From: Octopus vulgaris | Taxonomy: Eukaryota | Direction: 5' to 3' | Length of the DNA stretch: 64,000 nucleotides | NCBI GenBank assembly: GCA_951406725.2 | Contig: OX597823.1 | Span: forward strand, 47,864,001-47,928,000 | Shown here: positions 3,420-16,992 of the stretch, in pieces | Layout: each line of letters begins with the position of its first letter | How positions within the stretch are numbered: position 1 is the first letter of the stretch | The notes under the pieces: generated by a model | Told to the model about the DNA's origin: nothing | The model's input: the letters and a program-made list of their open reading frames with translations, nothing else | The model's database searches: none | Program-made: the position numbers and the translations under genes

Positions 3420-3759
3420 TGTTACACATTCATATCTATGTGTTACGTATGCCAAACTACATCCCCACTCTTGACACTATTTTGTTAGTGAACAGTACAA
3501 CTGTGTGTAAAGTATATTATGTATCACTACGCTGAACGTCGAGTTCGTGTAACATGTAAAGCAAATAAACACGTAACAATAACAATGGTTTTCATTTGGT
3601 TGTCTTTCCCATTAGAACCCGAACCACGCATAACATGGTGGCAGCGATAAATAATTAAACGAAAACTGTGCCTTTACAACAAATCAGAAACGCAACGAAC
3701 CAGGAGAGTAACAAACAAAACATCGCTTCGTCTTAGGACAACAAACACGACGATCCAAG

Positions 3760-4059
3760 ATGGCGACCCCCGCCGCCGTACAGATGAATCTACATCCGAT
3801 TATGGATTGGGACTCCGATGATATTTTGGAAGCATTTAAAAAGTTTAAACAGAAAACTCAACTAGCTTTCAAAAGTTTCCTGAAAGGCACAACTGACGAT
3901 GAGAAGGTAAGCTATATCCTTTTGTAGTCAGGTAATAAAGGAATAGACTTATTCAATAGCTGGGATATGTCAGAATCGGACTGCAATAACCCAGACACAC
4001 TTCTTGAGAAATTTGAAAGGCACCTAGAGCCCAGGTCGAACCATAGAATTCACAGATAC
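3760..4059 (+). pseudogene. gag: Gypsy gag N-terminal fragment
   Basis: MATPAAVQMNLHPIMDWDSDDILEAFKKFKQK...KVSYILL*SGNKGIDLFNSW...EKFERHLEPRSNHRIHRY; premature TAG at 3925. Confidence 0.75.
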
Positions 4060-4061
4060 TT

Positions 4062-4385
4062 GGAGGACAACATGTGCATACTCAAGATCCCATAACTAAA
4101 ACATGGATCCCAGCACAGGTTGTCAGTAGAGCTGAAACTCCAAGATCATATACAATAGAAACGGAATCTGGTAGGCAGCTGAGACGCAACAGGGCCCACA
4201 TCCGCCCAACACCAGAGCTGTCGAGGACAACGTGTACAACGCCTGCTGCATTAGTGACAACACCCACAGAATCATCACCCCAACGTGCACCAACCACCTA
4301 TCAGCAACCCAACAACACACCTCAGACACCGGTGCGAAGCACAAGATCCACCAGATGGAGAAAGAACATTCTGCCACCGGCTTGA
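4062..4385 (+). pseudogene. Gypsy integrase C-terminal fragment
   Basis: GQHVHTQDPITKTWIPAQVVSRAETPRSYTIETESGRQLRRNRAHIRPT, typical of Mag-type pol ends. Confidence 0.75.
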
Positions 4386-4646
4386 TACCGTTAAAGAAAA
4401 AAAAGGGAAAATGAAAAGAGAAGATATAATGTAATCTACAAATGCACGGTCCTTCACCTATTACACAATTATACAGCCATATGCATAGGATTATAAAAAT
4501 AGGATCACATGCGGTCGTATCGTGTAGGAGATACGGTCGCACGTGGTCATATTCTTAATGAAATATTACAGACCATATAATACATACAGCGGCAATAGAA
4601 CACAAGTGGAATGACAACAAGATTTCTTTTTGAGATATATACATTA

Positions 4647-4652
4647 TTTATT
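4647..4652 (-). terminator. Candidate polyadenylation signal AATAAA
   Basis: On the minus strand it is followed by CA about 15 nt later and then TTGTTGT. Confidence 0.45.
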
Positions 4653-5354
4653 TCACATATTTTACAATCATGCTGATGTTGGAAGTTTGTAAGTGTTAGC
4701 ATGTTTTTGTGTCCGTGTGTTCGTGAGCGCGACAGAGCAAATCAGGTGAAAGTGATTGACGTAGAAAAGTTACCCGATGGTGGGGGCAGCGAATATAGTA
4801 GGCTTCTTGTGTTGTTTGTATCGACATAGCAACAGATAGCAGCAGATGGCTTAAGGTAGTTCTTAGAAGAACTAGAACCCAAGACAGATAATTTATTTAC
4901 CGTTTATGAGGTACACGGAGTGTAAGAGTTCCATATCAAGATGTTGCGTCTCGTAGTTGAGATTAATTGAATCACTTGTTGTGTTTTATCTTTCTCTTGA
5001 TATGAATATACTTCCAGATATATTAACTGTAGCCGTTTTTCCCGTGGTGAGATTTTCACCTAACCGCTAGAGTTGAATCTATAGTTGTCTTGTGTACAAA
5101 TTAAACCTTCGTAGATAGAGACGATGGTTGGCGATGAGTTGTGTCTGTCGCTTGCTTTTTGTTGCGTCTTCATTATATATTCTGCTTGGTTATTTTTCTC
5201 TAGTTATAGATATCCTGTAACCGTCCCTTTCGTGGTGATATTTTCACACTAACAGTATGAGATGAATCTGTAACATCTTGTGTACAAGCTAAATCTTCGT
5301 GGATAGTTATGCTTGGTGATCGCCTGCCTTTCGAACCGGAACATGGTTGGTATG

Positions 5355-5553
5355 CTCTGTGTGGTCAGAGGTCCGCCCTGAAAAGGACTGTAACCTAAGA
5401 CGAGCGCTGTGGTCAGAGGTTTAGCTCTGAAAAGAGCTAAAAACCTAAGACGAGCTCTGTGGTCAGAGGTTTAGCTCTGAAAAGAACTAAAAACCTAAGA
5501 CGAGCTCTGTGGTCAGAGGTTTAGCTCTGAAAAGAACTAAAAACCTATGACGA
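5355..5553 (-). repeat. Four ~50-bp tandem hairpin repeats with histone-stem-loop-like tips
   Basis: Minus strand reads AG(C/T)TCT-TTTC-AGAGCT three times and GTCCT-TTTC-AGGGC once. Confidence 0.9.
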
Positions 5554-5572
5554 AAAGTGTCTGAGAACACCT

Positions 5573-5690
5573 CTTTATATAAGGTTTATGTGGCTCAAAC
5601 GAACTTCAGAAATGAAAAGCTGTGATTGGGTGCTTGGAACAAATGGCGCGAAAATAAGCGGAGGTAAATCGCGTCACGTGACAACCAATC
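5573..5690 (-). promoter_or_regulatory. Candidate Pol II promoter (TATA, two CCAAT, E2F, E-box)
   Basis: TATATAAAG 5573-5581; CCAAT 5625-5629 and 5685-5689; TTTCGCGC 5646-5653; TCACGTGA 5674-5681. Confidence 0.55.
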
Positions 5691-5807
5691 GGATTAGTGT
5701 TTACAACAACGTTAAACTAGCCGAAAATGTTCGTAATCTCGAACGAGATTATTCTTAATACTCTTCTCAAACAGTGAAGATAGCAATGAGGGAAACGATA
5801 TTGCTAC

Positions 5808-6170
5808 AGGATCAACAAAAAATTTTAAGCAACGATATGCCACTCATCGCTACTCTTTTAGATACGATAAACATAGTAATTCTACAACACTCACCAACCA
5901 CATACATCATCTCAAAAATGCAAATATACCCTATACTCTATCGTGGTCCATACTGGACTCGGGACTTCCCTACCGAGGTCAACGCTCAATCTGCAAGCTT
6001 TGCCTAAAGGAGGCTCTCCAAATATCAAAGCACAACTCTCCAACACTGCTTAATAAATATAACGAGGTACTAAGCACATGAAACCACCGCATTATCACAC
6101 ATTTAAATTCTACCACAAATCCAAATGCCAGAATTACCATACAGCACATTTCCGCAATACTCCTTAGGTA
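5808..6170 (+). pseudogene. Penelope-like element GIY-YIG endonuclease C-terminal fragment (Neptune-like)
   Basis: GSTKNFKQRYATHRYSF...STTLTNHIHHLK...WSIL...ICKLCLKEALQI...LLNKYNEVLST*NH. Confidence 0.8.
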
Positions 6171-8489: not shown

Positions 8490-9570
8490 ATTTATTTATT
8501 TTATTTTATTTTATTTTATCTAGTTTCAGCTCACGAGCTGTGGCCATGCTGGGGCACCGCCATTTGGTGTCGCTACATGATTTTACTTCACGAATGCTTT
8601 TTAGCAATTGCCATTTGGTGCATGAGACAGTTCGATGCAGCTGCCCTCATCTGCACCTCCTGCCGTGAAGTTGGTTCATCTGGGACACCTGACAGGAAGA
8701 GATTCAGTTTTATTTTAAAGACATCTGCATTCACCCCATGCAGGTCTCTCAGGTCCTTTGGGAGGATATTGAAGAGCTGTGGGCCTCTGAAGCCCAGGCT
8801 ATCACAGTATCTTGCCCTACATCTTGATGGCAAATTTGGAGTCCTTGGCACTATGCAGTGGCGCCCAGTTCTAGTATTTGTGTAACTCTCGATGCCAAAG
8901 CTTGGGACAAGTCCTTCTAGGATCTTCCAGATGTATATTATGGTATATCTTTCTCGCCTACGCTCTAAGGAATAGAGTCTTAATCTCTTGAGTCTTTCCC
9001 AGTAGCTTATATGCTGTTCAGAGGCTATCTTCTTCGTGCAGCTTCGTTGGATCGCCTCAAGTTCTGTGATTAACTTGACACTGGATGGTGACCATAGCTG
9101 AGAGCAATAGTAAAGTGGCTTAGGACAAGTGTCCTCCAGAGGACCATCATGGTTTCCTGGTCTCTTGTTCTAAGGGTTCTAAGAATCCATCCGGTCAGCC
9201 GCCTACATTTCATTGCCAATTTAGCAACATGCACATGAAAGGTTGCATCATCACTCGTGTAAATACCCAGGTCTCGCACTGATTGTGCCTCTGGGATTGC
9301 AATCCCTCCAGGTCCAGTGTATTTATTGGGTATTGCATTTAGTTTTGCATGCTGATAGCATAAAGCTTGAAACTTTTTAGCATTGAACTGCATGCTATTC
9401 TTTTCAGCCCATTTGTATATTTTGTCCAGCTCACATTGCAGGTACATAGTGTCTTCAGGGTTCTGTATTGCCTGTGAAACTTTTGTATCATCTGCATAAC
9501 TTGTGATCGTGGCTCTCTGCGTGGCTGAGGGCATGTCTGAGAGGGCCATTATGAACAGTAGTGGTCCCAT
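8490..9570 (-). mobile_element. CR1-clade LINE, 5'-truncated RT and C-terminus with 3' tail
   Basis: GPLLF...SYADDTKV...RDLGI; FKIKLNLFLSGVPDEP; (TAAAA)n tail; frameshifted. Confidence 0.9.
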
Positions 9571-9760
9571 TCTGTCCGAATTTTGAATAAAGAAAACAAG
9601 TGATCAAATGTTATATTTAATTGAAATTTAATCATCAATGCACTTTCCCTGATTATCTATGACTTCCTTCCATCTATTTACAAGCGTTTTAATCCCATTG
9701 GTTTCAAAGCGAAGAACTCTGAAATGTCAGTTGCGACCTCCTCCTGGCTTGTGAAAGCAT
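9571..9760 (-). mobile_element. mariner transposase C-terminal remnant
   Basis: ...DISEFFALKP / GIKTLVNRWKEVIDNQGKCIDD*. Confidence 0.7.
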
Positions 9761-11915: not shown

Positions 11916-13472
11916 TCTGACGTGTTCGGACGTGTTTTTTGGCAGCTGCCAGCTGTCACGTCTCAGGACGTGAAATATTGAATTTTTGAGACTCGACTAA
12001 AGGTAGGCATTTTGTATTTTTGCGGGCTAAGTGAATTTTATTGCTTGCATTTAATGTTTTGTAGCATTTAATATTTTTTAGCGGGTAATAGACTCTACTT
12101 TGCTCCGGAGATGTATTTTTTCTGCCTGTTGTCGAGTTTAAAGTCTCACTTTGCAGTGAGAATTGTGTTTTTTTGAGGAGGCATAGCCCCACCTCAAAAA
12201 TTAACGTGTGTAATTGCCTTTGTCTTCGGATATACCAACGGAGTACCAAGAACATTAACACAAGTGGATTACTAGTGGCCTGGAATACCTTTTTGGCCGG
12301 GAAAAAATAAGAAAAAATAATAATAACAATTCCTTATAATAACAATAATAACAAGAGTCTGATTGGGAGGGGTCAAAGGCTACTTTGACTCTATGGACCC
12401 AGTCAGCCAAGAGTCTGGTTTTGCCGGACTTTTTGAGGATGGCCGGGTCCAAGTATCCGGTGATGCTTCAGGGACGACCCCCAAGTGTCACCTGTGCCTG
12501 GAGCCTGGACATATCAAGAGGAAGTGTCCCGGAGGCCGTGGTGCTGCCCCGGAGCATGAAAAGGAAAAGGTACCCGCCGCTCTCTCATTGGAGGGGGAGA
12601 CGGTGGAAGTCGTGGAGGAAGTAGCCTCCACGAAAAGAAAAAAACAGGTGAGCAACAATGGTTGCTCACCAAAGAACGTACAGACGGAGGAGGAGGATAG
12701 CGACCCCCTGCGTCTGCCGAAGGAGCCCCCCGGGCTAGCAGCCTCAAAAAAAAAGAGGAAAAAGAGAATAAGAGGTCGGACGACTGACGTTTCTGTGTCG
12801 CCGACGGAGCCGCGGGTGGGATGTGTGCCACCCGCGGACAGGGTTTCGTCAGTGGGAAATGTGCCACTGACGGATCAGTGTGAGGTCCCTTCCTGTGAAG
12901 AGGAGTTGTTTCTCCTCCTTTACCACAAGGGAGGGAAGGTGGAAAAGTTTTTGAATGGCTTGGGTGACCGAGAACGCAAGGACACGGTCGGCTCAAGGAG
13001 TCCGTTATGGCCTCCGCGGGTAGCTGCGGAGGTAGTAACGGAAAACATTTTGTCAAGGGTCGCAGAGATCTTTGAGAGGAAACATTTTACTTTTCTCTTT
13101 GCAGGCCTCGACTTGTCGTCGCAGAGTTGTCTGCAGGCGGCAAGACAATTTGCTTCGGGGACCTGACAGGGAGAATTTTTGTGAAATCATGTACTGCCCT
13201 TGTGGCAAAAGAAATGAAAAAAAAAGGAACTTTGTAAGAGGTTTTAGTGCCTCCTTCGAGTAAGAGGTTTGCAACCTCATGTCGATTTACTGAAACTAAA
13301 GAAAATTGAACTTATTGAAAAAAAGAACAATGTCTTAGAGAAGCGGAAGTCGGTGGGCGCTTTCGTCTTCTCCCATCATCATCTTCACTTCATCACCATC
13401 ATTCATTAATGTCTATGTCCAGCCCGTAGCTACTATCTGTGTACTGCCCTTGTGGCAAATTAAATGAAATAA
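11916..13472 (+). mobile_element. Tx1/L1-like non-autonomous non-LTR element, copy 1 (ORF1 C-terminal part only)
   Basis: Flanked by AGTAGCTTGCTAACC at 11901-11915 and 13473-13487; zinc knuckle; AATAAA-like 3' end. Confidence 0.75.
12363..13166 (+). pseudogene. ORF1p (gag-like) fragment with CCHC zinc knuckle
   Basis: PKCHLCLEPGHIKRKC; N-terminus deleted; frameshift near 12470-12480; basic KKKRKKR tract. Confidence 0.75.
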
Positions 13473-13487
13473 AGTAGCTTGCTAACC

Positions 13488-15485
13488 TCTGACGTGTTTT
13501 TTTTTGGCGGAGAGTTCTTGCTGCTTGATGTCACGTCTTTCGTCGTAAAATATTGAATTTTGAGGCTCGACTACAGGTAGGCGTTTGTTGTATTTTTTTG
13601 AGGGCTTAGTGGAGTTTGTTGCTCTGTATTTAATATTTTTTGGTGAGTAATAGACTCCACTCTACTCCAGACATTTTCCTGCCTGTGGTCGAGCGTAAAG
13701 ACTCACTTTGCAGTGAGAATTGTGTTTTTGAGGAGGCGTAGTCCCTCCGCAAAAATTAATTTGTTTGCTTCTGAAATTGTCTTTGTGTTTTCCACTGGAT
13801 TTACCACGGAGTACCAAGGTAGAAAGGACTAATTGTGCTGCGGTTGGATTTATTTTACCATTGTGAGAATTTGGCGGGGGGGCGTATTCGTCTTCGATAA
13901 ATTGAATGTATATTTTTCTCACCTAATTATGAGAACTGTATTGTGCCTTGAAGAACTTTAAGAATTGTGAGAACTGCTATATAGGGGAGTGTTTTGCCTC
14001 CGAAGTTTGAACAATCTTTACCAATTTTATACCAATTTTTGTGGGAGTTGTGTTCCAGTTGCGGTGTTCCGGGTTCAATTTAGGCCGGGAGTACCGAATG
14101 GCCAGAAGATTTTTTGCTGTGTTATTGACTTTCTTTTGAACTTTATTTGATTTTCTCCTTTTTGTTTGTGACTTTCTGTTGATTTCTTCCCTTCTGTTGA
14201 TGTCTTCCCTTCTGTTGTGCTTCCTCCTTTTTTGTATCTTTCTCACTTTTTTAAAAAACCTATCGTGAACTTTATTTGGACTTTGAACTTTTTTCACATG
14301 GCAAAGAAAAATGAAGCCACTGCTTTGGAGTGGAAGGTTGTCCCACCCAAGCAGTGGATTAAAGATCTTGAGAAGAGGACGGTGGTACTACGAACCTATT
14401 CTAGGTCGCGTGGAGCCATCGCCCTCTTCGACAAGAGCATAATAGAAAAAGAGTTGGCAAACCACCTGCCAACTATAAAGTTTATTTCTCGGGGGACCAA
14501 ATTTGCAAAGGTGTGGTTTCTGTTTGGTACCCCCGAGGAAGCTAGCAGATTTGCTAGCGAGCCCCTTGAGGGTGAGGAAGTTTTGTTCCTCCCCTCGTAT
14601 TGTGGAAGAAAAATAAAAAGAGCCTGGGTGTGCAGGCTGCCCCCGGGCACGGAGGCGGGATGGATCGAGGAGACCATCCAACGAGGCCTGGGAGATAGTG
14701 GGCCCAGGCTTTTGAGTGTAAAAATTACTCTCGCGGTCGACTGGGAGAGGTCAAAGGCAACTTTGACCCTGTGGACCCCGGTGGCCGTGGGAGAGATGAT
14801 ATTCCCAGACTTCCTGAGAATGGCCGAGCACAGGTGCCCGGTGATACTCGAGGGACGCCCCCCCCAAGTGTCACCTGTGCCTGGACATATCAAAAGGAAC
14901 TGTCCCGGGGGCCGTGGTGGTGCCCCGGAGCATGGAAGGGAAAAGGTGCCCGCCGCCCCCTCATTGGAGGGGGAGACGGTGGAAGTCGTGGAGGAGGTTG
15001 CCTCCACGAAAAGAAAGAGACAGGTGAGCAACAATGGTTGCTCACCAAAGAATACTCAGGCGGCGGAGGGGGATAGTGACCCCCCCATGTCTGCCGACGG
15101 AGCCCCCTGGGCTAGCAGCCTCTAAAAAAGGAGGAAAAAGAGAAATAGAGTTCGGGCGGCTGATGTCCCTGGGTCGCCGACGGAGCCGCAGGTGGGATGT
15201 GTGCCACCTGCGGACAGGGCCCCGTCAGTGGGAAGTGTGCCACTAACGGAGCAGTATGACGTCCCTTCCCGTGAAGAGGAGATGTTTGTCCTCCTTTATC
15301 ACGAGGGAGGGACGGTTAGTAAATTTCTGGACGGCTTGGGCGACCGAGGACTTGTGTGCTCGTTCTACTCAAGCTGTCCGAATTGGCCTCAGCAGGTGGC
15401 TGCGGAAGCGGTTACCATTAATGTCTACGTCCAGCCCGCAAAGCTACATCTGTGTAATGCCCCTGTGACAAATTAGATAAAATAA
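13488..15485 (+). mobile_element. Tx1/L1-like non-autonomous element, copy 2 (5'UTR, ORF1, 3' tail)
   Basis: 5' end homologous to copy 1 (TCTGACGTG...); shared 3' tail CATTAATGTCTA..CCAGCCCG..AAATAAA; followed by target AGTAGCTTGCTTACC 15486-15500. Confidence 0.8.
14298..15416 (+). pseudogene. ORF1p, near full length, with indels at the zinc knuckle and later frameshifts
   Basis: MAKKNEATALEWKVVPPKQWIKDLEKRTVVLRTY...FLRMAEHRCPVILEGRPP..PGHIKRNC; homologous to copy 1. Confidence 0.75.
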
Positions 15486-16204: not shown

Positions 16205-16992
16205 CGGCATAGTTTCGGTTGTAGTAGCACAGATTTCCGTCGATTTCCGTAAAAAACATTTATTTTTTTACATAAGTAATGAGAGCGAAAGAGACTAAGA
16301 GGAAGCGATTTTACGACGAGAAGGTTTCACTTTGAAGTCGGCCTGTGTGTGTTTGATGGGGTGTGGGAGACAGACAGTATGTTGTGTAAGTGAAGTGCTT
16401 CTGTTAGTGTGTGCGAAGAGACAGACATACATATACACATACACCGAGTACATACATACATACATACACACACACACATACATAGATACATACACACACA
16501 CACATACATACATACATACACACACACATACTTACACACACACACACATACATACATACACACACACACATACATGCAGACATACATATACACATACACC
16601 GAGTAAAAAATTACGATGAATCGGCCATACATACATACATACACACACACATACTTACACACACACATACATAGATACATGCATACATACATATACACAT
16701 ACATGCATACATACATATACACATACACCGAGTAAAAAATCAGTTATCTCTCTCTTTCACACATTACTCTCTCTGTCTCTTCGCACACACTAACAGAAGC
16801 ACTTCACTTACACAACATACTGTCTGTCTCCCACACCCCATCAAACACACACAGGCCGATTTCAAAGTGAAACCTTCTCGTCATAAAATCGCTTCCTCTT
16901 AGTCTCTTTCGCTCTCATTACTTATGTAAAAAAATAAAAGTTTTTTACGGAAATCGACGGAAATCTGCGCTACGACATGCGAAACTTCGCCA
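16205..16992. repeat. About 220-bp inverted repeat pair enclosing CA/CATA microsatellite (fold-back or MITE-like)
   Basis: 16205-16424 is a near-perfect reverse complement of 16773-16992. Confidence 0.85.

Follow-up and report, generated by a model that had tools for sequence, protein, structure and literature searches.

A stretch of 64,000 nt from the Octopus vulgaris genome (the window; assembly GCA_951406725.2, contig OX597823.1, positions 47,864,001 to 47,928,000) carries on its minus strand a 1,317-bp segment at 4492..5808, with the ends TGTAG...TTTTATA that are also found in other copies. The segment is almost certainly a long terminal repeat (LTR), here a solo LTR of a non-coding CsRn1-type family, and is bounded by a 4-bp target-site duplication with its upstream copy at 5809..5812 and its downstream copy at 4488..4491. 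The insertion interrupts a GIY-YIG-like coding fragment on the plus strand (5809..6081; Atlas matches 0.92-0.94). These matches belong to one cluster with Pfam GIY-YIG in 26% of its members, and a Pfam scan of the interrupted fragment itself was blank; the fragment is presumably of Penelope type. Contigs joining 4486 to 5808, the empty insertion site, exist. Fragments resembling the start of a gypsy gag and the end of an integrase adjoin the insertion at 3650-4385 (by eye; Pfam blank).

The earlier note had described the segment as a cell-cycle-type promoter feeding into four histone-like stem-loops, and all the motifs that it named were found on the minus strand where it had placed them. The promoter words ATTGG (5689), TCACGTGA (5681), TTTCGCGC (5653), CCAAT (5629) and the TATA word TATATAAAG (5581) form a predicted U3 promoter at 5573..5689, with the correction that the first 'CCAAT' is reverse-oriented. 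Across 31 LTR starts, the reverse CCAAT is found in 24, TCACGTGA in 28, TTTCGCGC in 25, CCAAT in 27 and TATA in 28, and the promoter words are alike in the LTRs of coding relatives. The match to the E2F-type word TTTCGCGC is no evidence of cell-cycle regulation.

The four hairpin repeats of about 50 nt correspond to a 50-nt repeat of 3.9 copies (5360..5553, minus strand) with cores at 5538-5523, 5488-5473, 5438-5423 and 5389-5374, each unit having a histone-like core of 6 bp and a 4-nt loop atop a longer bulged stem. The two modules given as about 90 nt measure about 92 nt each (5306-5215 and 5118-5027, spanning 5027..5306 on the minus strand), are 76% alike and lie within a block of about 670 nt that is absent from the coding relatives' LTRs; a shorter joined form (4878 to 5549) was seen in contigs of two sequencing runs. 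The AATAAA at 4652-4647, with a GT-rich stretch after it, is the predicted poly(A) signal near the R/U5 border; all 24 copies that contain the upstream anchor have it. To these the analysis adds a fifth hairpin (core 4873-4858, minus strand), identical in sequence to the single hairpin in several coding relatives' LTRs, a second AATAAA at 4897, the true ends at 5808 and 4492, and the 4-bp duplication. The statement that no minus-strand ORF reaches 60 aa holds, the longest ATG frame being 51 aa, with stop-to-stop frames of up to 73 aa. A transcription start near 5550 and a poly(A) site near 4630 are predictions from sequence. The array folds with a z of -7.56, a value inflated by tandem repetition, and none of 200 shuffles equalled it. 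Under a strict histone-core rule the LTR has 5 matches; shuffled sequences average 0.003, and 1 of 300 shuffles contains any.

The LTR is covered by contigs of four sequencing runs presumed to be RNA. In one of them (X2) a contig of depth 283 stops at 4633, and in another (X8) there are contig ends at 4640 and 4628, all shortly beyond the AATAAA; a contig of X3 continues past it, and X1 is flat. Contig variants in these runs match the coding subfamily, and no poly(A) loose ends were found among the contig ends shown. The contigs are at most a weak hint of expression and were set aside.

The non-coding family and its coding relatives

Copies were searched for in 2.8 Gb of genome (227 contigs) with positions 4450-5900 as the query. 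The search gave 995 candidates, and most of the 79 matches in the 40 that were scored end at the same two points as the window unit. Among the 30 loci fetched, a few of which are segmental duplicates, 25 of 27 delimited copies have an exact 4-bp duplication and the other two have one mismatch. Near copies are 92-96% identical to the window LTR. The proposal that the unit is mobile is thus borne out by shared ends and 4-bp duplications in dispersed copies, and the promoter words, AATAAA and hairpins are kept across copies.

In two-LTR copies (for example L008, L014, L105, L109 and L136) the LTR pairs are 93-99.6% alike and enclose 180-210 bp in most cases and 84 bp in one; some form tandem arrays. 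The internal region begins with TGGTGACCC or TGGTGACTC, a tRNA-Trp-type primer site, and ends in a purine-rich tract, and the total length of L008 and L014 is 2.2-2.3 kb. Since the same sequence is paired around a primer site and purine tract elsewhere, the window copy is a solo LTR, which would have formed by LTR-LTR recombination. A promoter and a poly(A) signal without an ORF are the look of any LTR. The term 'noncoding RNA cassette' in the earlier note is therefore not the best description of a segment that is an LTR, an outcome that the note itself had named as speaking against it. The family, called family A here, may already carry a name in a repeat catalogue.

Both genomic copies and the longer coding versions anticipated by the earlier note were found. 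The coding relatives were reached through loci having only the primer side, and are 6.0-6.2 kb long with LTRs of about 820 bp; four of five tested have a 4-bp duplication. They encode a DUF7041 Gag with a CX2HX9CX3C (CHCC) motif, reverse transcriptase (RT), RNase H and integrase in the order PR-RT-RH-IN. The Gag motif is present in L120, L122, L134, L137 and L143, and the window family has no Gag. The coding relatives have LTR pairs that are 96.6-100% alike, and those of their frames that were examined are split. Their LTRs end in TTACA rather than the TTTTATA of the window copy, match the window LTR in three blocks at 69-77%, and have one hairpin, about 35 nt behind the TATA word, against five in the window LTR. 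One further locus, L164, has 93% RT identity and a near-identical CHCC motif, yet a different LTR without the hairpin. A-type RT is joined to unrelated LTRs in L164, L163 and L145, which suggests LTR exchange within the family.

By these sequence features the window family derives from a CsRn1-type Ty3/gypsy element and is itself non-coding. The assignment to the clade was made from the primer site, duplication, motif and ends, and the RT tree contains no named CsRn1 reference. As far as the available part of PMC2582038 describes CsRn1, PwRn1 and AgCR, the clade shares with the octopus elements the tRNA-Trp-type primer site TGGTGACCC, the 4-bp duplication and TGT...ATA or ...ACA ends, and with the coding relatives the CHCC Gag motif and the PR-RT-RH-IN order. 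The clade LTRs listed there measure 146-381 bp, whereas those here are 0.8 kb in coding and 1.1-1.45 kb in non-coding elements, and that part of the paper mentions no histone-like hairpins in LTRs.

A gag-pol at C20:30.97 and 31.32 Mb was considered as the partner and rejected, being a nested unrelated gypsy element with its own 240-bp LTR and a different primer site. A gypsy family without the hairpin (L067-L096, L323, L324) is very young, with LTRs of 240 bp and about 80 RT copies that are 92-100% identical.

Conservation of the hairpin

An exact pattern of the core plus 3' flank with the loop TNTN gave 318 genomic matches and 0 in the control. Over about 325 genomic units, which derive from few source variants, perhaps ten, the stem pair G2-C15 and loop positions U1 and U3 are nearly invariant; the other two loop positions (2 and 4) are variable, and stem pairs covary. 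Genome-wide, loop position 1 is other than T in 3 units and position 3 in 4, nearly all of them isolated cases; C and T are both common at position 2, where 13 units have a purine; and position 4 takes C, A, T and G among the first 100 of the 318 matches. Stem position 4 switches between T-A and C-G and is unpaired in 2 units, and not one unit in the genome has both G2 and C15 replaced.

When 41 distinct cores from all families were compared, 89% of cells were paired and 12 double-sided changes were counted against 4.8 in shuffled data, the cores having been selected by a scan that allows at most two departures from the structure, which favours it, and six off-register or spurious rows having been excluded. 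These data indicate that the hairpin is very probably a selected RNA structure. G2-C15 and loop U3 are described as diagnostic letters of histone stem-loops (10.64898/2026.10.14.759114, in part), and all five window hairpins have both the second-pair G-C and the loop U3. The number of units is one in coding LTRs, at most five in the surveyed non-coding copies and eight in one tandem array; a single hairpin would have been amplified into an array in the non-coding branch.

Comparison with host histone stem-loops

The host genome encodes an SLBP RNA-binding domain at C8:59.84 Mb, and 37 of 42 distinct host histone gene ends have a stem-loop. The metazoan histone 3' stem-loop (RF00032) and the LTR hairpins share a 6-bp stem, a 4-nt loop, G2-C15, a top U-A pair, loop U1 and U3, a pyrimidine 5' arm and the loop variants of the host genes; each of the host loops TTTC, TTTT, TTTA, TCTA and TATA also occurs in LTR hairpins. 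The differences lie around this core. The bottom pair is G-C in all 37 host stem-loops, but mostly A-U in the LTR cores and broken in 16 of 41 rows. Adenine at -3 in the 5' flank is found in 50 of 56 host sites and in none of the five window hairpins, whose 3' flanks are predicted to be mostly paired. According to the available parts of PMC10388802 and PMC3884669, the 5' adenines are needed for wild-type binding, and the second pair matters too. A host-type downstream word follows 36 of 56 host sites, none of the five window hairpins and 1 of 6 tested family B hairpins (see below). Family A hairpins also differ from the histone element in forming arrays, in having no histone ORF and, in the window, no host-type downstream word, and in lying about 720 nt before an AATAAA.

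Rfam reported nothing at gathering level in the window, and no Histone3 match at E up to 10 over 4300-6000; on 5340-5560 alone, a partial Histone3 match of 12.7 bits (E 1.5, cut-off 34) fell on the third hairpin. RF00032 hairpins are expected 25-60 nt after a histone stop codon, at the 3' end of the RNA; the window hairpins instead lie close behind TATA, with no ORF upstream. Judged on sequence, the window hairpins resemble the histone stem-loop core at most and are not RF00032 members. The likeness to histone stem-loops claimed earlier therefore stands for the core letters, which are conserved and recur in two other lineages, and fails for the 5' adenines, which family A lacks, and for the host-type downstream word, which follows none of the five window hairpins.

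Derivation of the A-U bottom pair from an H1-type stem-loop was considered and dropped, as the three host H1 genes with a stem-loop have G-C. Three H1-like genes (L277, L280, L282) have no stem-loop within 160 nt of the stop and are possibly replication-independent. For host U7, the best Rfam score of 28.7 bits was below the cut-off, and a pattern search gave 158 matches against 276 in the control.

Recurrence in other CsRn1-like lineages

From 150 RT matches, 40 further CsRn1-like octopus loci were fetched. A second family, family B, has RT 66-69% identical and a 589-bp LTR, with four or five hairpins lying after the AATAAA and before the primer site. Its hairpins have ATAAC or ACCAC in front and unpaired flanks, as in histone mRNAs, and reach 21.9 bits with Rfam Histone3, below the cut-off of 34 (E 0.099 when corrected for the whole of Rfam). 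Of 95 tandem-hairpin matches in the genome, 92 lie in family B; the control gave 24. The family B and window LTRs can be aligned over the hairpin only, 17 nt. Family B loci include L146, L147, L148, L152 and L167, and a run of more than 10 units lies at C28:14.599 Mb. Five other octopus CsRn1-like LTR types have no hairpin, and one of these sits on an A-type RT.

A metagenome survey covered 80 loci, 59 of them with an LTR-side zone, 72 kb in total, in which 4 strict sense matches and 0 antisense matches were found. Two of them, L240:5226 and L250:6181, were dropped as coding and read as a shared peptide. In L246 (RT 47%), a tandem hairpin pair with AAAC in front lies in the putative 3' LTR, which is unalignable outside the hairpins, and scores 24.6 bits with Histone3, also below the cut-off of 34 (E 0.011 after all-family correction); the hairpin is absent in 58 of the 59 loci with an LTR-side zone. 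Family B and L246 thus both have histone-like, unpaired A/C-rich flanks with 5' adenines. In L248 and L250, degenerate repeats lie upstream of the promoter words. CsRn1-like metagenome LTRs with histone-like hairpins were noted at L246:3480-4464, L248:6429-6848 and L250:5538-5955; L250 has an imperfect hairpin followed by AAAGAGCTG, which we take to resemble the vertebrate histone downstream element. The strict rule found nothing on either strand of 20 gypsy loci outside the CsRn1 type (200 kb), and viral contigs gave neither an RT relative nor a tandem-hairpin match.

In a quick tree of 102 of 104 RT rows, family A, family B and L246 stand apart, with hairpin-less lineages between them, and the position of the hairpin inside the LTR differs between families. 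LTR exchange between A and B within one genome may have occurred. It is conceivable, though short of probable, that LTRs of CsRn1-type elements gained SLBP-binding histone stem-loops on several occasions and multiplied them, in three or more lineages and in more than a single animal host. The elements would thereby have coupled the export, stability or translation of their RNA to the pathway of histone mRNA in oocytes, early embryos or dividing cells.

Proposed role and alternative explanations

In the reading proposed here, which is given an even chance, the hairpins are an accessory RNA protein-binding site in the ends of the element's RNA, likely for SLBP. A near-identical Gag and Pol that dispense with the hairpin, together with distant lineages that share the histone-core letters, point to a host factor, and among host factors SLBP would fit the pattern best. 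With a Pol II start near 5550 and polyadenylation near 4630, the hairpins would fall in R; transcription from TATA at 5581 to AATAAA at 4652 would give an R of about 920 nt, so that the array would be present in both the 5' end and the 3' tail of the element RNA. Gag and Pol would come in trans from a coding relative, and at times of plentiful SLBP its binding would help the element RNA to be exported, stabilised or translated. SLBP acts in the export and translation of histone mRNA (PMC3763545, in part). Direct histone-type 3' cleavage would be less likely than such a role, since no host-type downstream word follows the window hairpins. SLBP as the binder is a probable assignment for the two families with canonical flanks (B and L246) and a tentative one, rather doubtful than not, for the window family.

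The hairpin could instead be a signal internal to the element, for packaging or dimerisation by its own Gag or as a TAR-like 5' stem, its histone likeness being convergent and the non-coding branch having amplified it to compete for particles. The hairpins do closely follow the predicted start, on a longer stem with bulges, their number rises from one copy in coding LTRs to the arrays of the non-coding ones, and family A flanks differ from histone flanks, all of which would suit such a signal. This explanation is nevertheless unlikely, if deserving of some weight, because L164, with its closely related RT and near-identical CHCC motif, has a hairpin-less LTR, so this Gag seems not to need the hairpin; moreover, distant Gags (RT 47-69%) would have to converge on SLBP's own letters. 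That the palindromes act as DNA, as repeated sites for transcription factors or other DNA-binding proteins, is quite improbable: mismatches are G-U wobbles on the sense strand only, stem pairs covary, and matches at octopus loci number 27 sense against 6 antisense, albeit in repeated copies. The observations in its favour are the similar repeats upstream of CCAAT- or TATA-like words in L248 and L250 and one in L246, the insertion of several Tx1-like families at the hairpin, and TTCTAAGAA in the fifth hairpin, which we take to resemble a STAT site.

A hairpin without selected function, its likeness a product of chance and tandem duplication, has very little probability. The strict rule has a background of about 1 match per 70-125 kb, two of the four LTR-side metagenome matches are coding sequence, and families A and B share one genome and may have one origin; against this stand the covariation, the fixed loop positions, the arrays in three lineages and the Histone3 scores of B and L246, which are significant after the all-Rfam correction. 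The window copy has intact promoter words and AATAAA, and a solo LTR can transcribe its own R, which would allow it to be an independent noncoding RNA gene of the host whose product soaks up SLBP in S phase. Such a gene is, however, the least credible of these explanations and highly improbable, as the window copy is one among very many dispersed copies (40 scored of the 995 candidates, with the near copies described above), nothing distinguishes it from the others, and the other two families have more canonical hairpins.

Relation to known systems

TRIMs (Cassandra, Helenus, Ajax), as far as described in the available part of PMC10886601, likewise have two LTRs around a short non-coding interior that holds a primer site and a purine tract; they also occur in tandem arrays, leave many solo LTRs and have an RNA-gene-like motif inside the LTR. 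They total less than 1 kb, whereas the elements here are about 2.2-2.9 kb and thus exceed the TRIM length, and they borrowed a Pol III promoter, in contrast to the predicted Pol II words and putative protein-binding hairpin here; a further difference is that the family A LTR is homologous to that of its coding partner. Histone-processing factors are reported to act on retroelement or viral RNA: U7 snRNA acts on human LTR12 RNA through U7-complementary motifs and represses it (PMC11417402, in part), and SLBP on the SARS-CoV-2 frameshift RNA (PMC12166091, in part). The SARS-CoV-2 site is a frameshift stem-loop, and no histone-type array of hairpins in an LTR is mentioned in either abstract.

No description of histone stem-loops in LTRs was found in the titles and abstract openings of the papers listed. 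The word 'histone' is absent in PMC10886601 and PMC13282606 and occurs in one unrelated place in PMC3601003. The element is thus of a known kind, with a recurrent RNA motif that is apparently undescribed.

SLBP and the stem-loop are regarded as dedicated to replication-dependent histone mRNAs. If the proposed role is correct, the conserved and amplified hairpins would amount to a new kind of dependence of LTR elements on the host and give them a means of timing by cell cycle or germline, and hundreds of dispersed copies could put such hairpins into host transcripts. If SLBP does not bind, the segment would be a solo LTR like any other, its conserved hairpin serving a different function.

Tx1-like insertions and other features of the window

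About 12 nt before the family A hairpin core lies a shared end point of Tx1-like non-LTR elements without poly(A), which belong to at least three families. Such ends were found in L343 (C4:112.47 Mb), L344 (C4:97.26 Mb), L345 (C10:99.36 Mb), L346 (C10:100.29 Mb) and L033/L034 (C20:30.97 Mb), and ends near the hairpin show 16-19-bp duplications reaching the loop. A Tx1-like family that strictly targets histone stem-loops was considered and rejected: of the 30 ends of one such family, 3 are at the LTR hairpin, the query among them, and six ends adjoining histone genes miss the stem-loop, so that the hairpin is a hot spot and not a strict target. Some of the ends at the hairpin may be 3' transductions. 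In the C29 histone cluster (L357, L359, L360, L378-L380), Tx1-like 3' ends are repeated with the cluster units and lie off the stem-loops.

Elsewhere in the window, a non-LTR reverse transcriptase-like frame lies at 8588-9603 on the minus strand, and two Tx1-like first-ORF frames lie at 12363-13166 and 14172-15125 on the plus strand, all recognised by eye. A 220-nt inverted repeat (16206-16425 and 16772-16991), 96% complementary, flanks a microsatellite.
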